Shown here piece after piece: positions 7,628 through 64,000 of a stretch of DNA of 64,000 nucleotides. The stretch spans positions 225,787 to 289,786 of the forward strand of contig CAWGTN010000001.1 in assembly GCA_963825525.1 (NCBI GenBank). The letters are read 5' to 3'. Below the pieces are notes generated by a model. The model saw only the letters and a program-made list of their open reading frames with translations. It did not search any database and was not told where the DNA came from. The stretch's first letter is position 1; each line of letters begins with the position of its first letter. This DNA is from an uncultured Chloroflexia bacterium (GTDB lineage: Bacteria; Chloroflexota; Limnocylindria; QHBO01). Position numbers and translations under genes: made by a program.

Positions 7628-9178
7628 GTGTCCACCGCCGATAAGCTTGATCGCCTGCGGCAGCTGCGCGAGGAGTCTCGCTTGGGTGGGGGAGCGCGGC
7701 GGCTGGAACAGCAGCACGCCCGGGGCAAGCTGTCCGCTCGAGAGCGACTCGAGTTGCTGCTTGACGACGATTCGTTCACCGAGCTGGACGCATTCGTGAC
7801 GCATCGGGCCACCGATTTCGGTCTGGACGAGGAGCGGTACCTCGGTGACGGCGTGATCACCGGGTTCGGGCGGATCGACGGACGTCCCGTGTACGTCTAC
7901 AGCCAGGACTTCACGGTCTTCGGCGGATCGCTCTCCGAGGCGCATGCCGAGAAGATCTGCAAGGTGATGGACCTCGCGGTGGAGAACGGGGTGCCGATCA
8001 TCGGTCTGTCGGACTCGGGCGGCGCCCGCATACAGGAAGGCGTCGTCAGTCTCGGCGGGTACGCCGACATCTTCCTTCGCAACACGCTGGCATCTGGCGT
8101 GGTACCCCAGATCTCGTTGATCATGGGCCCGTGTGCTGGAGGAGCCGTGTACTCACCGGCGATCACCGACTTTGTCGTGATGGTGGAGGGCACGAGCTAC
8201 ATGTTCGTGACCGGCCCGAACGTCGTGAAGACGGTGACCCATGAGGAGATCGACTTCGAGGGCCTGGGCGGCGCGCAGATTCACAACGAGACGAGCGGTG
8301 TCGCGCATTTCCTTGCCGCGGGAGAGCCGCAGGCGCTGCAGCTTGCGCGAACCTTGTTCGGGTACCTCCCAGCGAACAATGTGGATCTGCCGCCGCGCCC
8401 CGACGCGTGGGAGTCGCCATCAATCTCCAGCGACGCACTCGATAGCCTGATTCCAGATTCACCGAAGCAGTCCTACGACATGCATACGGTGATCGGTGGA
8501 ATCGTCGACGCCGAATCATTCACCGAGGTGCATGCGCAGTTCGCGCGCAACATCATCTGCGGGCTCGGCAGGGTCGAAGGACGGACGGTCGGTATCGTGG
8601 CGCAGCAGCCCGAGGTACTTGCCGGTGTGCTGGACATCGACGCGTCCGACAAGGCCGCGCGATTCGTTCGCACCTGCGACTGCTTCAACATCCCGTTGGT
8701 GACGCTTGTCGACGTCCCCGGATTTCTGCCCGGTGTCGAACAGGAGCACCGAGGAATCATTCGTCACGGTGCAAAGCTGCTGTACGCGTACTGCGAGGCG
8801 ACCGTTCCGAAGATCACGGTGATCACGCGCAAGGCGTACGGCGGCGCATATGACGTCATGAGCAGCAAGCATGTCCGGGGCGACATGAACTTTGCATGGC
8901 CCACGGCCGAGATCGCGGTCATGGGTGTCGAAGGTGCCGTCAACATCATCTTCCGTGACGAGATCGGTGCAGCCGCGGACGAGGTCGCGGAGCGCGCGCG
9001 ACTGGTAACGGAGTACGAGGAGCGGTTTGCCAATCCTTATGTCGCCGCGGCCCGCGGCTACGTCGACGAGGTGATCCTTCCGTCGGAGACGCGGGCTCGG
9101 ATCTCCGGTGCGTTGACGATCCTGGCGAACAAGCGGCAGTCGGTGCCGCCCAAGAAGCACGGCAATATTCCGCTCTGA
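7628..9178 (+). CDS. pccB: Acyl-CoA (propionyl-CoA) carboxylase carboxyltransferase beta subunit
   Basis: [45 protein letters not shown]. Confidence 0.93.
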
Positions 9179-60882: not shown

Positions 60883-61308
60883 ATGAACAAGGTGATGCTC
60901 GTCGGTCGATTGACCCGTGACCCGGAGCTTCGCTCGCTGCCCTCGGGAAAACACGTCGCGACGTTCACGGTCGCCACCAACGAGTACCGCGGTGGGAACG
61001 GTGAGCGGACCGAATACCACCCCTGCGTCGCCTGGGATCGGCTTGCCGAGATCTGCGGCCAGTTCCTGTCCAAGGGCCAGCTGGTCGACGTCGACGGGCG
61101 GCTGCAGACTCGCCAGTGGGACGACGACGCCGGAAAGCGACACTGGAAGACGGAGGTGGTCGTCGGATCGCTCGAGATGCTGTCGGGACGATCGAAGAAG
61201 GAGTACGCCCGGGAAGCGGAGGCCGTGGCCAATGCACCGGATGAATCGGCTCCGGTGGCGGCCAATGGCGCTGCCACCAACGACCTCGAGGCGGCCATCG
61301 CGATGTGA
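60883..61308 (+). CDS. ssb: Single-stranded DNA-binding protein
   Basis: AAGGAG RBS; MNKVMLVGRLTRDPELR, KGQLV.V.GRLQTRQW. Confidence 0.94.
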   Translation: MNKVMLVGRLTRDPELRSLPSGKHVATFTVATNEYRGGNGERTEYHPCVAWDRLAEICGQFLSKGQLVDVDGRLQTRQWDDDAGKRHWKTEVVVGSLEMLSGRSKKEYAREAEAVANAPDESAPVAANGAATNDLEAAIAM

Positions 61309-61314
61309 TCCGTC

Positions 61315-61348
61315 GGGCGGCGGGGCTCGTCCCCCGGTCCCGTCGCCC
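61315..61348 (+). terminator. GC-rich hairpin after ssb
   Basis: GGGCGGCGGG...CCCGTCGCCC; no T tract. Confidence 0.45.
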
Positions 61349-61496
61349 TGCACGCGAATCCGCGAGCTCCGCGTCACCGCCAGCGGTCGCACCCTGTTCT
61401 AGCTGCGCTTCCCGCGACCGCACTCGCTGCTCCAAAGTCTGGTAGCCCCAACGCGGCAAGTACCTGGCAGCAGATGAGCCCGACAGTGAGCCTTCC

Positions 61497-61517
61497 TCAT
61501 ACCCGCCCGACTGGTCT
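61497..61517 (+). repeat. Direct repeat A, copy 1
   Basis: TCATACCCGCCCGACtGGTcT; 15-nt exact and 19/21 match to 63576-63596. Confidence 0.7.
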
Positions 61518-61538
61518 AGACGGTCGGATCGATGCTCG

Positions 61539-61554
61539 GGGATAGCGGCGGCTT
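61539..61554 (+). repeat. Direct repeat B, copy 1
   Basis: GGGATAGCGGCGGCTT, identical to 61988-62003. Confidence 0.75.
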
Positions 61555-61565
61555 CCTCGCTCCCC

Positions 61566-61952
61566 TTACATGCAGGCCTCGGGCTCCGGAAGTTCCTCGA
61601 GCCGATGCAGGAAGAGGGGCACGCCCAAGCTGCTCTGATAGCCAGCCTCATCGGCATCGATCCGGACGATCCAGCCCTGGTCGAATGGGTTGCCGAATCC
61701 GGCCGGCGGGTTCCCTGATCCGTCGTTGAGTGGCCCCGGCCCTCTCGCCTCCCAGTGCTCGCCATCGAATTCGATGACGGTACCGTCGAGCCCGCAGTGC
61801 GTTAAGAGCTCGAACCGAACCCAGTCCCCGCCGCCTTCAATTGGCGGCGGCGCGGCCACGCTCGGACCGACGGCGGGTGGTGGCCCGGCCGAGCACGCTG
61901 CTAGCACGACCAGGGAAGCTGCAAGATATAGCAGGACAACCGGTGGCCTCAT
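61566..61952 (-). CDS. Lipoprotein (128 aa)
   Basis: Lipobox LAAC, LLTHCG..C-terminal Cys; TATAAC 6 nt upstream. Confidence 0.75.
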   Translation of the reverse strand: MRPPVVLLYLAASLVVLAACSAGPPPAVGPSVAAPPPIEGGGDWVRFELLTHCGLDGTVIEFDGEHWEARGPGPLNDGSGNPPAGFGNPFDQGWIVRIDADEAGYQSSLGVPLFLHRLEELPEPEACM

Positions 61953-61987
61953 GCTGCAGTTATATCCGACAGTCGCGAATATGTGTC

Positions 61988-62003
61988 GGGATAGCGGCGG
62001 CTT
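61988..62003 (+). repeat. Direct repeat B, copy 2
   Basis: GGGATAGCGGCGGCTT, overlapping the right arm of TATCCGACA..TGTCGGGATA. Confidence 0.75.
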
Positions 62004-62018
62004 TCGTATGCTCCGCGT

Positions 62019-62405
62019 ATGGACCATACGAGTCCGCGAGATGTTGCCCTCGCAGCGATTGACGAGCTGTGGGAGGGGCCCGCAGCGGCGTTCCTCGCAA
62101 TGGGCCGAGAGTCCGCTGCGCTTGATTGGGCCGCGCTTATCCCACTCTTTGTCGATATCGAAACGATTGCGCGGGATGCCCGAAAAGCACTCGAGCAATC
62201 TGCCGACCACGGCGAACCAGAACCGCTGCGGCAGGCCCGCCTCATCTTTCGGATGCTCGAGGCTGCGTCCGGCGTGATTCGGTACGCGTGGATTGGTGGG
62301 GACCATGGCTACGGGGACGACGTCGAGCCCTGGAGCTCCCTGGGGGGCCAAACGATGGGCATGCTCCCGACACTTCGCGAGTTCGTCGCGTCAGTTCCCG
62401 AATAA
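62019..62405 (+). CDS. Hypothetical helical protein (128 aa)
   Basis: Protein-like ORF; TATGCT 6 nt upstream of the ATG. Confidence 0.6.
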   Translation: MDHTSPRDVALAAIDELWEGPAAAFLAMGRESAALDWAALIPLFVDIETIARDARKALEQSADHGEPEPLRQARLIFRMLEAASGVIRYAWIGGDHGYGDDVEPWSSLGGQTMGMLPTLREFVASVPE

Positions 62406-62421
62406 TCCCGTGGCGCCACAG

Positions 62422-62444
62422 TTGACAGTGGCGCAAGCGCCACT
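62422..62444 (+). repeat. Direct repeat C (TTGAC plus hairpin), copy 1
   Basis: TTGACAGTGGCGCAAGCGCCACT; 22/23 match to 62827-62849. Confidence 0.85.
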
Positions 62445-62486
62445 CGATCACCAAGGCGCCGCGAGGGCTTGGTGTACCGTCGCCGC

Positions 62487-62813
62487 ATGCGCCGACGAAT
62501 CGCGGTGGGACCCGTGCTTGCGGTCTTTGTGCTGGCGCTTGCCGGGTGTTTGGTGTGGAAGCCGCGTAACACTGACGGCGTGATGATTGTGAACGCGACG
62601 TCCGAAACGGTGACCGTCGTCGTGTTGTATCCCTCTGGAGAGAGCGATCTCGTGACGTACCGCCCTGGAGAGTCGTCAGTAGAGAACAACATGCTCAACG
62701 CGGCCGACGGCTGCACGCGATTCGCGATGGTTGCTCGGGCCGAGGACGGGCGCGAGCTCGATCGACAGCCAGCTCCGATCTGCGTTGATGACGAGTGGCG
62801 CATCGAGGGGTGA
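62487..62813 (+). CDS. Lipoprotein (108 aa)
   Basis: MRRR, hydrophobic core, LAGC lipobox, Cys pair; TACCGT 6 nt upstream. Confidence 0.72.
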   Translation: MRRRIAVGPVLAVFVLALAGCLVWKPRNTDGVMIVNATSETVTVVVLYPSGESDLVTYRPGESSVENNMLNAADGCTRFAMVARAEDGRELDRQPAPICVDDEWRIEG

Positions 62814-62826
62814 CCGTGGGTCAAAC

Positions 62827-62849
62827 TTGACAGTGGCGTAAGCGCCACT
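62827..62849 (+). repeat. Direct repeat C, copy 2
   Basis: TTGACAGTGGCGTAAGCGCCACT. Confidence 0.85.
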
Positions 62850-62865
62850 GGAGCGCCGCGGCGGG

Positions 62866-63324
62866 TCAGAGGTATCCGGAGAGCCACAACACCAGAGCAA
62901 GCCCTCCGAGCCCACCTACGACGGTCAGGACGGAGCTCCACGACAGGTCCCAGTCCTCGCGACGGTACTTCAGGAAATCGTCATCAACTGATATGGACCC
63001 GGACTCTCGCGTGTTGGCCACCTTCGTGATCGCCAACCAGGCCAGGAGCAGGCCGCTCGCGAGAAGGAAGCCGCCGTACAGCCACTCCCATCCAGCGCGG
63101 CATCCTCGTACCCCGGTGCTGTTGCATTCATAGAACCCGGTCAGAATTCCGGCGCCGACGAGCATAAAAACGGCCGCGAAGGTGAGGAGAGCATTCCGCT
63201 GCCCGATTCGTCGCTGGAGCCATGCTGTGCCCTCGTATCCGACGCGGCGCGCCTGCCAGACGAACCAAAAGAACAAGCGGAAGGGGGCGGAGACCACCCA
63301 CCAGGCGAATCTGACAATCGGCAC
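62866..63324 (-). CDS. Hypothetical multi-pass membrane protein
   Basis: Three to four hydrophobic segments, Cys pair in a loop; TATTCT 6 nt upstream of the GTG. Confidence 0.68.
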   Translation of the reverse strand: MPIVRFAWWVVSAPFRLFFWFVWQARRVGYEGTAWLQRRIGQRNALLTFAAVFMLVGAGILTGFYECNSTGVRGCRAGWEWLYGGFLLASGLLLAWLAITKVANTRESGSISVDDDFLKYRREDWDLSWSSVLTVVGGLGGLALVLWLSGYL

Positions 63325-63575
63325 GGCCGGAGAATAACGCCCGGGACAGGCATGCTCCTACTTGACTGCGCCAACTCGTCGAAGCGCCTGAGGGAGGAAC
63401 TTAGCAGTGTCCCAAGCGCCGGTCGGAATCCCCGATGATCCCCCATGCCAGTGCTACGGTGATCCAATGCGTCGACTCCTTCGGCCCTTGGTCACGGCCG
63501 CTCGGCTACCACTCGCCTCGATAAGCGCGTGGTAAGCGACTCCGCCTAGCATGGGTTGAGCCGTCGCGATCCTCG

Positions 63576-63596
63576 TCATACCCGCCCGACCGGTGT
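63576..63596 (+). repeat. Direct repeat A, copy 2
   Basis: TCATACCCGCCCGACcGGTgT. Confidence 0.7.
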
Positions 63597-63649
63597 GAGG
63601 TACGCTCCGCGAGCTCAAGTCCCGAGCCGCTTTGGGGGAGATCAGCTCG

Positions 63650-63988
63650 ATGTTCATTCGGATCGTTTCGATGGTCGTCCTTGCCCTGCTCTTTGCAGGC
63701 GCCGGAGGCTCCGTTCGCGCTGGCTCAGTTGCCAATCGGCTTGAGGGCATTGATCGGTTCGAAACGGCTCAGCAGATCTACTTGACGCGGTATCCGGGTG
63801 GGTCTGTCCCGTTCATTCATGCCGTCTCGGGATTTAGCTGGCCAGATGCCCTCGTCGCCGGACCCGCCGCCGCGACAAGTAACGGGGTCATGCCAGGAGG
63901 CCCCGTCATCCTGACCTCAGAGACCAACAGCAAGTGGCTTTCGAAGATAAGCAATAGGTGGTGTTCTCCATCTACTGGTTCAGGTTGA
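63650..63988 (+). CDS. Secreted protein with one cell-wall-binding repeat 2 (CWB2)-like unit, possibly truncated
   Basis: GGGGAG RBS, signal peptide, RLEGIDRFETA, SGFSWPDALVAGPAAA..PVILT. Confidence 0.6.
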   Translation: MFIRIVSMVVLALLFAGAGGSVRAGSVANRLEGIDRFETAQQIYLTRYPGGSVPFIHAVSGFSWPDALVAGPAAATSNGVMPGGPVILTSETNSKWLSKISNRWCSPSTGSG

Positions 63989-64000
63989 GGTCTTGCTCTA

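Follow-up and report, generated by a model that had tools for sequence, protein, structure and literature searches.

How a genome brings unrelated small genes together behind one conserved gene, and by what means such genes are passed on, is the question raised by the DNA downstream of ssb in an uncultured soil bacterium of the Limnocylindria (Chloroflexota). In this study, a stretch of 64,000 nucleotides (the window), which is the final 64 kb of contig C1 of a 2.58-Mb genome, was investigated from ssb to its end. An earlier note on this DNA had read the block after ssb as four short genes bracketed by three nested pairs of direct repeats (A, B and C), and had supposed that single-gene modules are integrated there site-specifically, leaving one site per gene, by a cassette system other than the integron. 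We observed that positions 61349-64000 are the proximal part of a hypervariable accessory-gene locus, which extends from ssb to metG-groESL in soil Limnocylindria, and that this locus is composed of single-gene modules with leaderless-type promoters of their own, whose boundaries bear one of two lineage-specific elements, here called E and C. As a rule, each element stands a short way past the stop codon of a small gene in its own orientation, and same-strand arrays of either one occur at several chromosomal hotspots of the genus. The cassette-like accessory-gene array is real and genus-wide, and its gene-plus-tag units are exchanged between genomes; the site-specific integration of its modules is unproven.

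The variability of the locus was observed by comparing 80 ssb loci of Chloroflexota, mostly from metagenome-assembled genomes of 'Candidatus Limnocylindria'. The order oligopeptide ABC genes, nadE, ssb, variable DNA, metG and groESL is conserved in the genus, and the similarity of relatives to the window ends at about 61348-61352, just past ssb. The right flank of the window's own genome was located on contig C2 (C2:42129-47820), where a conserved oxidoreductase-like gene, metG, tatD, groES and groEL are found. In about 20 relatives the DNA after ssb varies in size and genes, and relatives other than the empty-site locus named next carry 1-12 kb of different small genes there, as drawn by a crude gene caller. 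In locus L032, ssb directly adjoins an EamA gene, whose counterpart in the genome of the window lies at C2:38511, and L032 is thus an empty site; its identity to the window's genome amounts to 93% for the ssb DNA and 84% for the flanks. The island of this genome is flanked by ssb and by a detached copy of the ssb 3' segment ('ssb, 92.7% identical), which forms the far end of an inner island, 6.5 kb before the conserved right flank at C2:42129. From 61400 onward, after ssb, GC drops from 0.68-0.73 to 0.59-0.65. The earlier description of four short genes in mixed orientation in less GC-rich DNA is thus confirmed, and the gene content is not invariant, since it differs between relatives and within the soil population described below.

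The four small genes encode two lipoproteins (LP1 and LP2), a helical protein and a membrane protein. None of them has a Pfam match, and the lipoboxes LAAC and LAGC were read directly from the translations of the lipoproteins. A -10-like hexamer stands exactly 6 nt before the start in all four (TATAAC, TATGCT, TACCGT and TATTCT), as had been noticed earlier, whereas TANNNT at that spacing precedes 5 of 233 well-scoring genes on contig C1, counted with crude start calls. Leaderless-type self-promotion is therefore a trait of these genes and not of the genome at large. Relatives of the genes were also observed elsewhere, as a homologue of LP1 with 69% identity lies in a different hotspot of genome G008 (L132 9067-9339), and a paralogue of LP2 with 72% identity, followed by a C copy, was found at C2:34828-35136. 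The hotspots seen comprise ssb-metG, lepA-hemN, rseP-infB and a site upstream of an addA-like helicase gene, and the cargo near E and C includes GNAT, glyoxalase, SnoaL and SRPBCC proteins and lipoproteins.

All three repeat pairs are present where the earlier note had placed them. Repeat A (61494-61515 and 63573-63594) measures 22 nt with 91% identity, repeat B (61539-61554 and 61988-62003) is identical at 16 of 16 positions, and repeat C measures 42 nt with 81% identity and contains an 18-nt palindrome. The pairs are non-random, as the region holds two exact direct repeats of at least 15 nt, and in first-order Markov simulations at least one such repeat arose in 15 of 1000 runs and three or more in none. 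The nested brackets themselves had to be given up. An alignment of copies in relatives revealed a single element of about 80 nt, E, which has A as its 5' arm and B as its 3' arm. The full-length E of the window contains the first copies of both repeats, and the second copies are truncated forms of E, so that the supposed brackets are three successive module boundaries. The truncated 3' part is followed by TATGCT, 6 nt and the ATG of the helical-protein gene, and the isolated 5' arm sits in a shorter hairpin (63558-63616), the fold of which is not better than shuffles. The E set of this genome consists of the full copy, the 3' part and the 5' arm with that arm's duplicate on C2. Other copies of the repeats in the genome were seen only within a copy of the array on C2 (C2:28958-30711) and at two C-like sites (C2:33213 and C2:35116); by these counts, and by those of 61 genus genomes given below, the repeats are not genome-wide REP elements.

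E folds as an imperfect four-helix hairpin of 25 pairs, which was fitted to an alignment of 25 sequences. Pairing is kept in 90.1% of the cells of these 25 copies, against 30-46% when the partners are slid, and changes on both sides of a pair were counted in 48 cells, against 19.4 in shuffles, none of the 500 shuffles reaching the observed value. Three pairs are conserved as G.U, indicating that one strand of E folds, and the covariance model favours that strand (for example 103.5 against 15.4 bits in L013). No match was obtained from Rfam 15 in the window at E-values up to 5, and with two good E copies only chance-level miRNA and sRNA rows were returned, with E-values above 1.

E was detected in 29 of 61 genus genomes, with 1-13 copies each, and these copies often cluster on one strand at spacings of 0.5-1.5 kb. 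In a class-wide draw of 121 genomes, 9 had E, all of one family. The unpublished genomes G006, G050, G075 and G146 are counted in these tallies, G146 being one of the two E matches outside the genus; leaving out G050 and G075 gives 27 of 59 genomes for E and 19 of 59 for C. Beyond these tallies and the count for the protein family SP70 below, nothing claimed here depends on the unpublished genomes. Five of the 80 ssb loci hold nine E matches, all nine on the ssb strand and downstream of ssb. In 46 of 56 cases the gene upstream of E has the orientation of E, the median distance being 75 nt, and for the gene downstream this holds in 41 of 57. A selfish repeat resembling a miniature inverted-repeat transposable element or a REP, whose transposase is now gone and whose preference for variable regions yields the modules as a by-product, would account for the outer 9-bp stem of E, which resembles terminal inverted repeats, for inner-hairpin subtypes that are partly genome-specific, for two 95%-identical gene copies in genome G010 whose E copies differ in their interiors, and for the presence of another short repeat family (F) in the genus. 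We consider this origin improbable, as E is biased in orientation relative to genes and confined to 1-13 copies per genome, no target-site duplication is visible by eye in the flanks of the 25 copies, and Y1, rve or serine transposases were found in none of five genomes searched whole. Repeat family F itself, of about 105 nt, was noticed at L112 6665-6779 (G053) and recurs many times in further genomes of the genus. The first 37 nt of F show 100% conservation over many genomes and in our own reading look like the 5' half of a tRNA, for which ARAGORN and Rfam find nothing. The copies are clustered and sometimes adjoin E, and none is found in the genome of the window at an E-value of 1e-10 or better.

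The second element, C, also departs from the earlier reading in being related to an internal segment of ssb. It is colinear with ssb 61104-61149 minus 12 nt, and in the window this gap yields the palindrome; the conserved part measures about 40 nt, more than the palindrome, and shows no hairpin in most copies. In the alignment of C to ssb, the copy of L143 scores 29, which none of 500 shuffles reached, whereas the two copies of the window align weakly and were matched by 15 and 55 of 500 shuffles. A search with a C 21-mer, allowing up to 2 mismatches, gave 31 matches in 21 of 61 genomes, and the reversed control gave none. The relation to ssb is also displayed in the neighbourhood of C, since in L013, L014 (twice), L015, L099, L041 and L145 it passes directly into a 3' fragment of ssb, always at one and the same junction, and the ssb-like right part is kept in nearly all 30 C copies, whatever the locus. 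By our own count C follows a co-oriented gene in 17 of 25 cases. Arrays of C were observed in L140, where four same-strand copies with one gene each stand between lepA-side and hemN genes of G049, in L134 (G002), which has a C-gene-C array, and in L014, which has the C-'ssb junction at 8225 and 9510 and a further C at 8546. Detached ssb fragments are similar to the intact ssb of the same genome or of the nearest ones; the 'ssb fragment of G013, with 95% identity to the intact gene of G019 and 91% to its own, is as expected of a displaced native ssb 3' end, judged from these identities. C was also tried as a promoter and rejected, as TANNNT follows its TTGACA at 16-18 nt in none of 30 copies. 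Pieces of ssb were seen at other hotspots as well, namely a C-'ssb junction with a second ssb piece between lepA-side genes and hemN (L145 2391-2754, G074) and a 63-aa open reading frame (ORF) of the SSB family (L123 4698-4886, G054), suggesting that ssb pieces travel with modules.

The modules were found to differ in position between genomes and within one soil population. G013 and G019 carry the same three modules, 87-94% identical, in a different order, and the homology ends in E or C. G010 has module copies at three loci. A 449-nt module common to G016 and G008 is 97.1% identical between them, compared with 86.7% for a stretch close by in these two genomes, and G041 and G060 share 1.1 kb at 97.3%, the end of which lies 30 nt from a C. 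Among 303 homology ends, taken from 81 blocks of 150-1500 nt with L001 and the unpublished L137 and L138 excluded, 26 lie within 25 nt of an element, whereas random points gave 6.3 +/- 2.4, with a maximum of 15 in 1000 trials. The soil-population evidence comes from contigs of four runs (X1-X4) of one study, at a depth of 2.8-7, and where contigs of some runs left part of the window uncovered (62814-63483 in X2, for example), this was not counted as absence. One X4 contig, of depth 2.8, joins 62865 to 63502, an indel of 636 nt by which the membrane-protein unit is missing, and a loose end in X3 at 62867 has the same continuation. The left end of this indel lies 2 nt after the C repeat. An X1 contig departs from the window immediately past E's 3' end, and the motif at this loose end has no match in 111 loci.

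E and C may instead be functional boundary elements, such as a terminator or stabiliser hairpin of a 3' untranslated region or a promoter-proximal or protein-binding motif, which travel with their genes through ordinary illegitimate or homologous rearrangements. The 75 nt that typically separate E from the co-oriented gene before it and the G.U pairs, which suit a transcribed strand, are in keeping with such elements, and some E copies lead at their 3' end into a -10-like box and a leaderless start (62007-62021 in the window; L021 6095); the 636-nt indel, with just 2 nt of microhomology, likewise resembles an ordinary rearrangement. One 80-nt terminator, 80-90% identical on unrelated genes across loci and species, would be unexpected unless it spreads, however, and Rfam holds no such family. 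The low-copy, patchy distribution (29 and 21 of 61 genomes for E and C) and the lack of a hairpin in the conserved part of most C copies also speak against this reading, which we consider unlikely.

As an overall explanation, we propose accretion combined with exchange anchored at the tags E and C, the catalyst being encoded outside the locus, and hold it with about even confidence. The simplest history for C is insertion into the 3' half of ssb by DNA carrying C and an ssb 3' segment, which was repeated and then eroded. DNA would enter by recombination within the 3' half of ssb, bringing C and an ssb 3' segment along; ssb would thereby be restored, and its former 3' end would be displaced downstream as a C-'ssb fragment. 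Repeated events of this kind, with later deletions, could produce rows of gene-plus-tag units in tandem, and the units tagged by E or C might then be copied, and traded among hotspots and species, through recombination at the tags or beside them, so that the tags would serve as portable anchors. The catalyst could be the recombination of the host itself, RecA-type or illegitimate, or else the probable XerC/XerD pair or an enzyme provided in trans. E fits a recombination anchor, a transcript element or both, and it may double as the 3' hairpin of the upstream transcript.

Several observations weigh against accretion with tag-anchored exchange. Elements and homology ends both prefer intergenic DNA, so that the true excess of breakpoints is smaller than 26 against 6.3. 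Nor do the ends share one nucleotide. Some directly follow the 3' end of E or a bare 3' core, some lie at the apex of its inner hairpin, and others are at no element, such as the right end (63502) of the 636-nt indel, which shows 2 nt of microhomology. The earlier expectation that indels break at the repeats is accordingly borne out by the enrichment and not by the exact positions, and the single-gene modules with one site per gene stand as a variable, self-promoted array with an element at nearly every gene boundary, but without a breakpoint at a fixed nucleotide. The full E copy of the window has a degenerate 5' arm, and the single-sequence folds of the window's own E copies are not better than shuffles, so the case for structure rests on covariation. 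The C-'ssb junctions may go back to a single ancient duplication whose copies gene conversion has kept alike, in place of repeated insertions, and the gene maps come from our own codon-usage gene caller, which is crude. Furthermore, no recombinase was found among the gene calls of the window's own island or among 117 proteins of relatives' islands, which include one RepSA/G2P-type Rep (G017), and among 114 further neighbour proteins of E and C the sole candidate is a truncated phage-type integrase (G060).

The earlier note had also suggested looking for a recombinase or HUH nuclease accompanying the repeats, and no dedicated recombinase was found in five genomes or among the 117 and 114 neighbour proteins. 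The window has no PF00589, PF00239, PF01797 or PF00665 match, so its lack of a recombinase, as reported earlier, holds. The five genomes were covered by whole-genome family searches, from which the recombinase result for the genomes of L112-L116 derives. PF00589 gives two conserved tyrosine-recombinase genes in each of them, including G010 with its 13 E copies, whereas serine recombinase, Y1 transposase and rve were found in none of the five; G000 and G012 hold tyrosine-recombinase fragments besides the conserved pair, which is probably XerC/XerD, as its conservation indicates. A scan of the genome for dif-type sites (ATAA-N6-TTAT-type) gave no match with a motif that is narrow and possibly not the dif of this lineage. 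Two further candidates were rejected. The truncated integrase (L122 4760-5498, G060:C7) abuts a tRNA-Glu(CTC) and so denotes a tRNA-linked island of the ordinary kind, in which small genes tagged by E stand at 3-4 kb and an E at 3.2 kb; it is no enzyme specific to E. The Rep of G017, as a general catalyst, is found in only one of five genomes. This RepSA / REP_ORF2-G2P-type rolling-circle Rep lies together with an Ltp-type lipoprotein upstream of both C-'ssb junctions (L014 198-953, G017:C25), which suggests that a plasmid- or phage-like element was once inserted at ssb.

A further protein family, SP70, was met near E copies. Its members have 70-74 aa and are known only from Chloroflexota metagenome proteins (38 clusters, all hypothetical). 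An SP70 gene lies within 5 kb of E for 9 of the 17 best genus matches (7 of 13 without G050 and G075), often upstream of the array and divergent, and distant paralogues occur in the genome of the window (C3:53080-53367 and C2:640446-640718). The AlphaFold model, with a pLDDT of 93.3, displays a four-stranded sheet plus helices; no Pfam match and no PDB match at an E-value of 0.001 or better were obtained, the best being DUF3055 at 0.3, and the family therefore gives no functional lead.

These results bear on the supposition that a dedicated, integron-independent cassette system is at work, in which E, and perhaps C, is a site folded from one strand and an enzyme supplied in trans moves circles of gene plus site. 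In its favour, the layout resembles arrays of ORF plus attC, with same-strand sites after co-oriented single genes. In E the helices covary, unpaired bases are conserved and the G.U pairs suit one strand only, and many homology ends fall at its 3' end. GNAT, glyoxalase, SnoaL and SRPBCC proteins and lipoproteins are cargo of the kind usual in cassettes, and SP70 lies near E for 9 of its 17 best matches. We nevertheless regard such a system as rather unlikely. The five genomes, G010 among them, have no integrase, serine recombinase, Y1 or rve and only their two conserved tyrosine recombinases, the breakpoints are heterogeneous with no fixed crossover point, the strand compatible with G.U pairs is the sense strand, so that a role in RNA explains the covariation equally well, and SP70 has no Pfam match or significant PDB fold match. 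A wider form, in which E and the ssb-derived C would be strand-specific folded sites for an enzyme other than IntI (the Xer pair of the host or some protein not yet recognised), perhaps with the aid of SP70, and with hotspots such as ssb-metG as collecting platforms, seems to us similarly doubtful.

With reference to known systems, the closest in layout are clusters of attC sites lacking an integrase (CALIN; Cury et al. 2016, PMC4889954). In these clusters, structured sites of about 60-140 nt stand on the same strand, each after one small, mostly co-oriented ORF, the cargo is small and accessory, and arrays may stand without a nearby integrase, all of which resembles the present array. Two or more same-strand structured sites with single ORFs between them are found in the E/C arrays. 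On the other hand, no R'' (RYYYAAC) or R' (GTTRRRY) box was found in any of 25 E copies on either strand or flanking the window repeats, which agrees with the earlier statement that the repeats lack integron attC ends, and no IntI was found. Each gene has its own promoter (4/4), unlike promoterless cassettes read from a common one, two unrelated site families share one array, the G.U-favoured strand is the sense strand and the breakpoints are heterogeneous.

Integrative elements are known to accrete in tandem at a target gene's 3' end, and where the integrase is lost they leave cis-mobilisable elements (CIMEs). The island of the window is similarly flanked by direct repeats of the ssb 3' end (92.7% over 233 nt), L032 offers an empty site, att-like copies stand in tandem (L014, and the C copies of the window at 62417 and 62822), and inner units are devoid of recombination genes. 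The units here are as small as one gene (0.4-1.3 kb), however, no integrase was found in any ssb-linked island examined, and the att-like C occurs at other hotspots too. REP/BIME sequences with RAYT, ERIC and Correia elements are intergenic hairpin repeats, and E shares with them the form of a short imperfect palindrome between genes, often at 3' ends, with possible effects on transcripts. It differs in having 1-13 copies and not hundreds, with Y1 (PF01797) in none of five genomes, in its strong orientation bias and in being confined to variable loci. The pdif sites are 28-bp XerC/XerD sites in alternating orientation, whereas E and C are direct repeats of another form, and a narrow dif-type scan of the genome found none. 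As in the present locus, the pdif modules of Acinetobacter plasmids (PMC7399989) are non-integron single-gene modules with short sites, and they are served by host recombinases encoded elsewhere. Literature on Chloroflexi attC sites and integrons, on mobile elements of Limnocylindria and on dif modules or XerC cassettes yielded no description of such elements, and a search of PMC13212565 by terms showed integron, cassette, repeat and genomic island to be absent.

The remaining part of the window concerns its end, which is also the end of the contig. A stretch of 1758 bp (62191-63948) recurs at C2:28958-30711 with 99.2% identity; the C2 copy begins inside the helical-protein gene, adjoins a nuo operon and contains the whole CWB2 gene (340 aa; Pfam CW_binding_2, E-value 2e-53). 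The C1 end and the C2 copy are either strain haplotypes or a true duplication; if they are one locus, the inner island from ssb to 'ssb would span about 7.3 kb, followed by 2.9 kb of extra DNA. Past 63948, contigs from all four soil runs follow the C2-type sequence and contradict the last 52 bases, so the end of the window is artificial and the locus runs on into C2-type sequence; the 52 bases are probably adapter or assembly debris. These unsupported bases at a contig end and the near-identical second copy on another contig are what could be cited for chance similarity or an assembly artefact as the source of the array. We regard that explanation as very improbable, since the repeats exceed the simulations, E and C recur in dozens of other genomes, and independent X1 contigs match the window inside the array without differences (61334-61682, 62291-62537 and 62904-63371). 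A one-base deletion at 62806 was observed in X3 and X4 contigs, at the point where the LP2 frame of the C2 copy departs from that of the window. A second, distant SSB-family match was seen at C2:215612-215938 (G000), with 35% identity to a relative's ssb, making the ssb of the window one of two SSB genes. At the G053 locus, the comparison for an insertion of E alone gave relatives whose homology stops before the intergenic region, with synteny broken. The features are collected in Table 1.

Table 1. Genes, elements and segments of the array downstream of ssb, with the SP70 genes of related loci (positions in the window unless a locus is named).
Feature	Position	Strand	Evidence or remark
ssb	60883-61308	+	Pfam SSB, E-value 9.9e-34; conserved left anchor; nadE-ssb synteny kept in genus
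ssb-internal segment colinear with element C	61104-61149	+	C lacks 12 nt of the segment
ssb 3' segment recurring detached as 'ssb	61116-61348	+	92.7% over 233 nt to C2:35364-35596
Element E, full length, degenerate 5' arm	61472-61568	+	R1 covariance model 62.3 bits, E-value 1.2e-11; nhmmer positions 5-78
LP1, small lipoprotein gene	61566-61952	-	ORF; stop codon abuts E 3' end
Truncated E, 3' part (B copy 2)	61946-62017	+	weak: nhmmer positions 39-81, E-value 0.03; R1 20.2 bits, E-value 0.074
Small helical protein gene	62019-62405	+	ORF; C2 copy starts inside at 62191
Element C copy a	62417-62458	+	hairpin z -2.6
LP2, small lipoprotein gene	62487-62813	+	ORF; bracketed by both C copies
Element C copy b	62822-62863	+	hairpin z -3.9
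Membrane-protein gene	62866-63324	-	ORF
Membrane-protein unit (gene and upstream DNA)	62866-63501	-	missing in soil population variant
E 5' arm only (A copy 2)	63564-63595	+	nhmmer positions 5-37, E-value 0.0018
CWB2 cell-wall-binding protein gene, 5' part	63650-63948	+	cut by contig end
Contig-end bases	63949-64000		low GC; match neither the C2 copy nor any of the soil-run contigs compared
SP70 genes	L013 3930-4139, L015 5551-5742, L017 5908-6129, L119 10654-10872, L132 6297-		

To our knowledge, no system other than the integron is as yet well understood in which single genes are stockpiled behind structured sites. The present locus belongs to an abundant, uncultured soil lineage with genomes of 2-3 Mb, and almost no classical mobile-element genes were found in the five genomes searched whole, yet individually promoted accessory genes with conserved structured tags are shuffled between its hotspots and occur in near-identical form across species. 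The study has also brought to light a new structured element, E, and, within a protein-coding gene, a well-defined hotspot of insertion. Should the tags prove to be recombination sites, they would represent a second, independent solution to the capture of cassettes, one that is testable with two short DNA elements. Should they be no more than anchors or elements of the transcript, the locus still illustrates the way in which accessory genes are traded by genomes of this kind.

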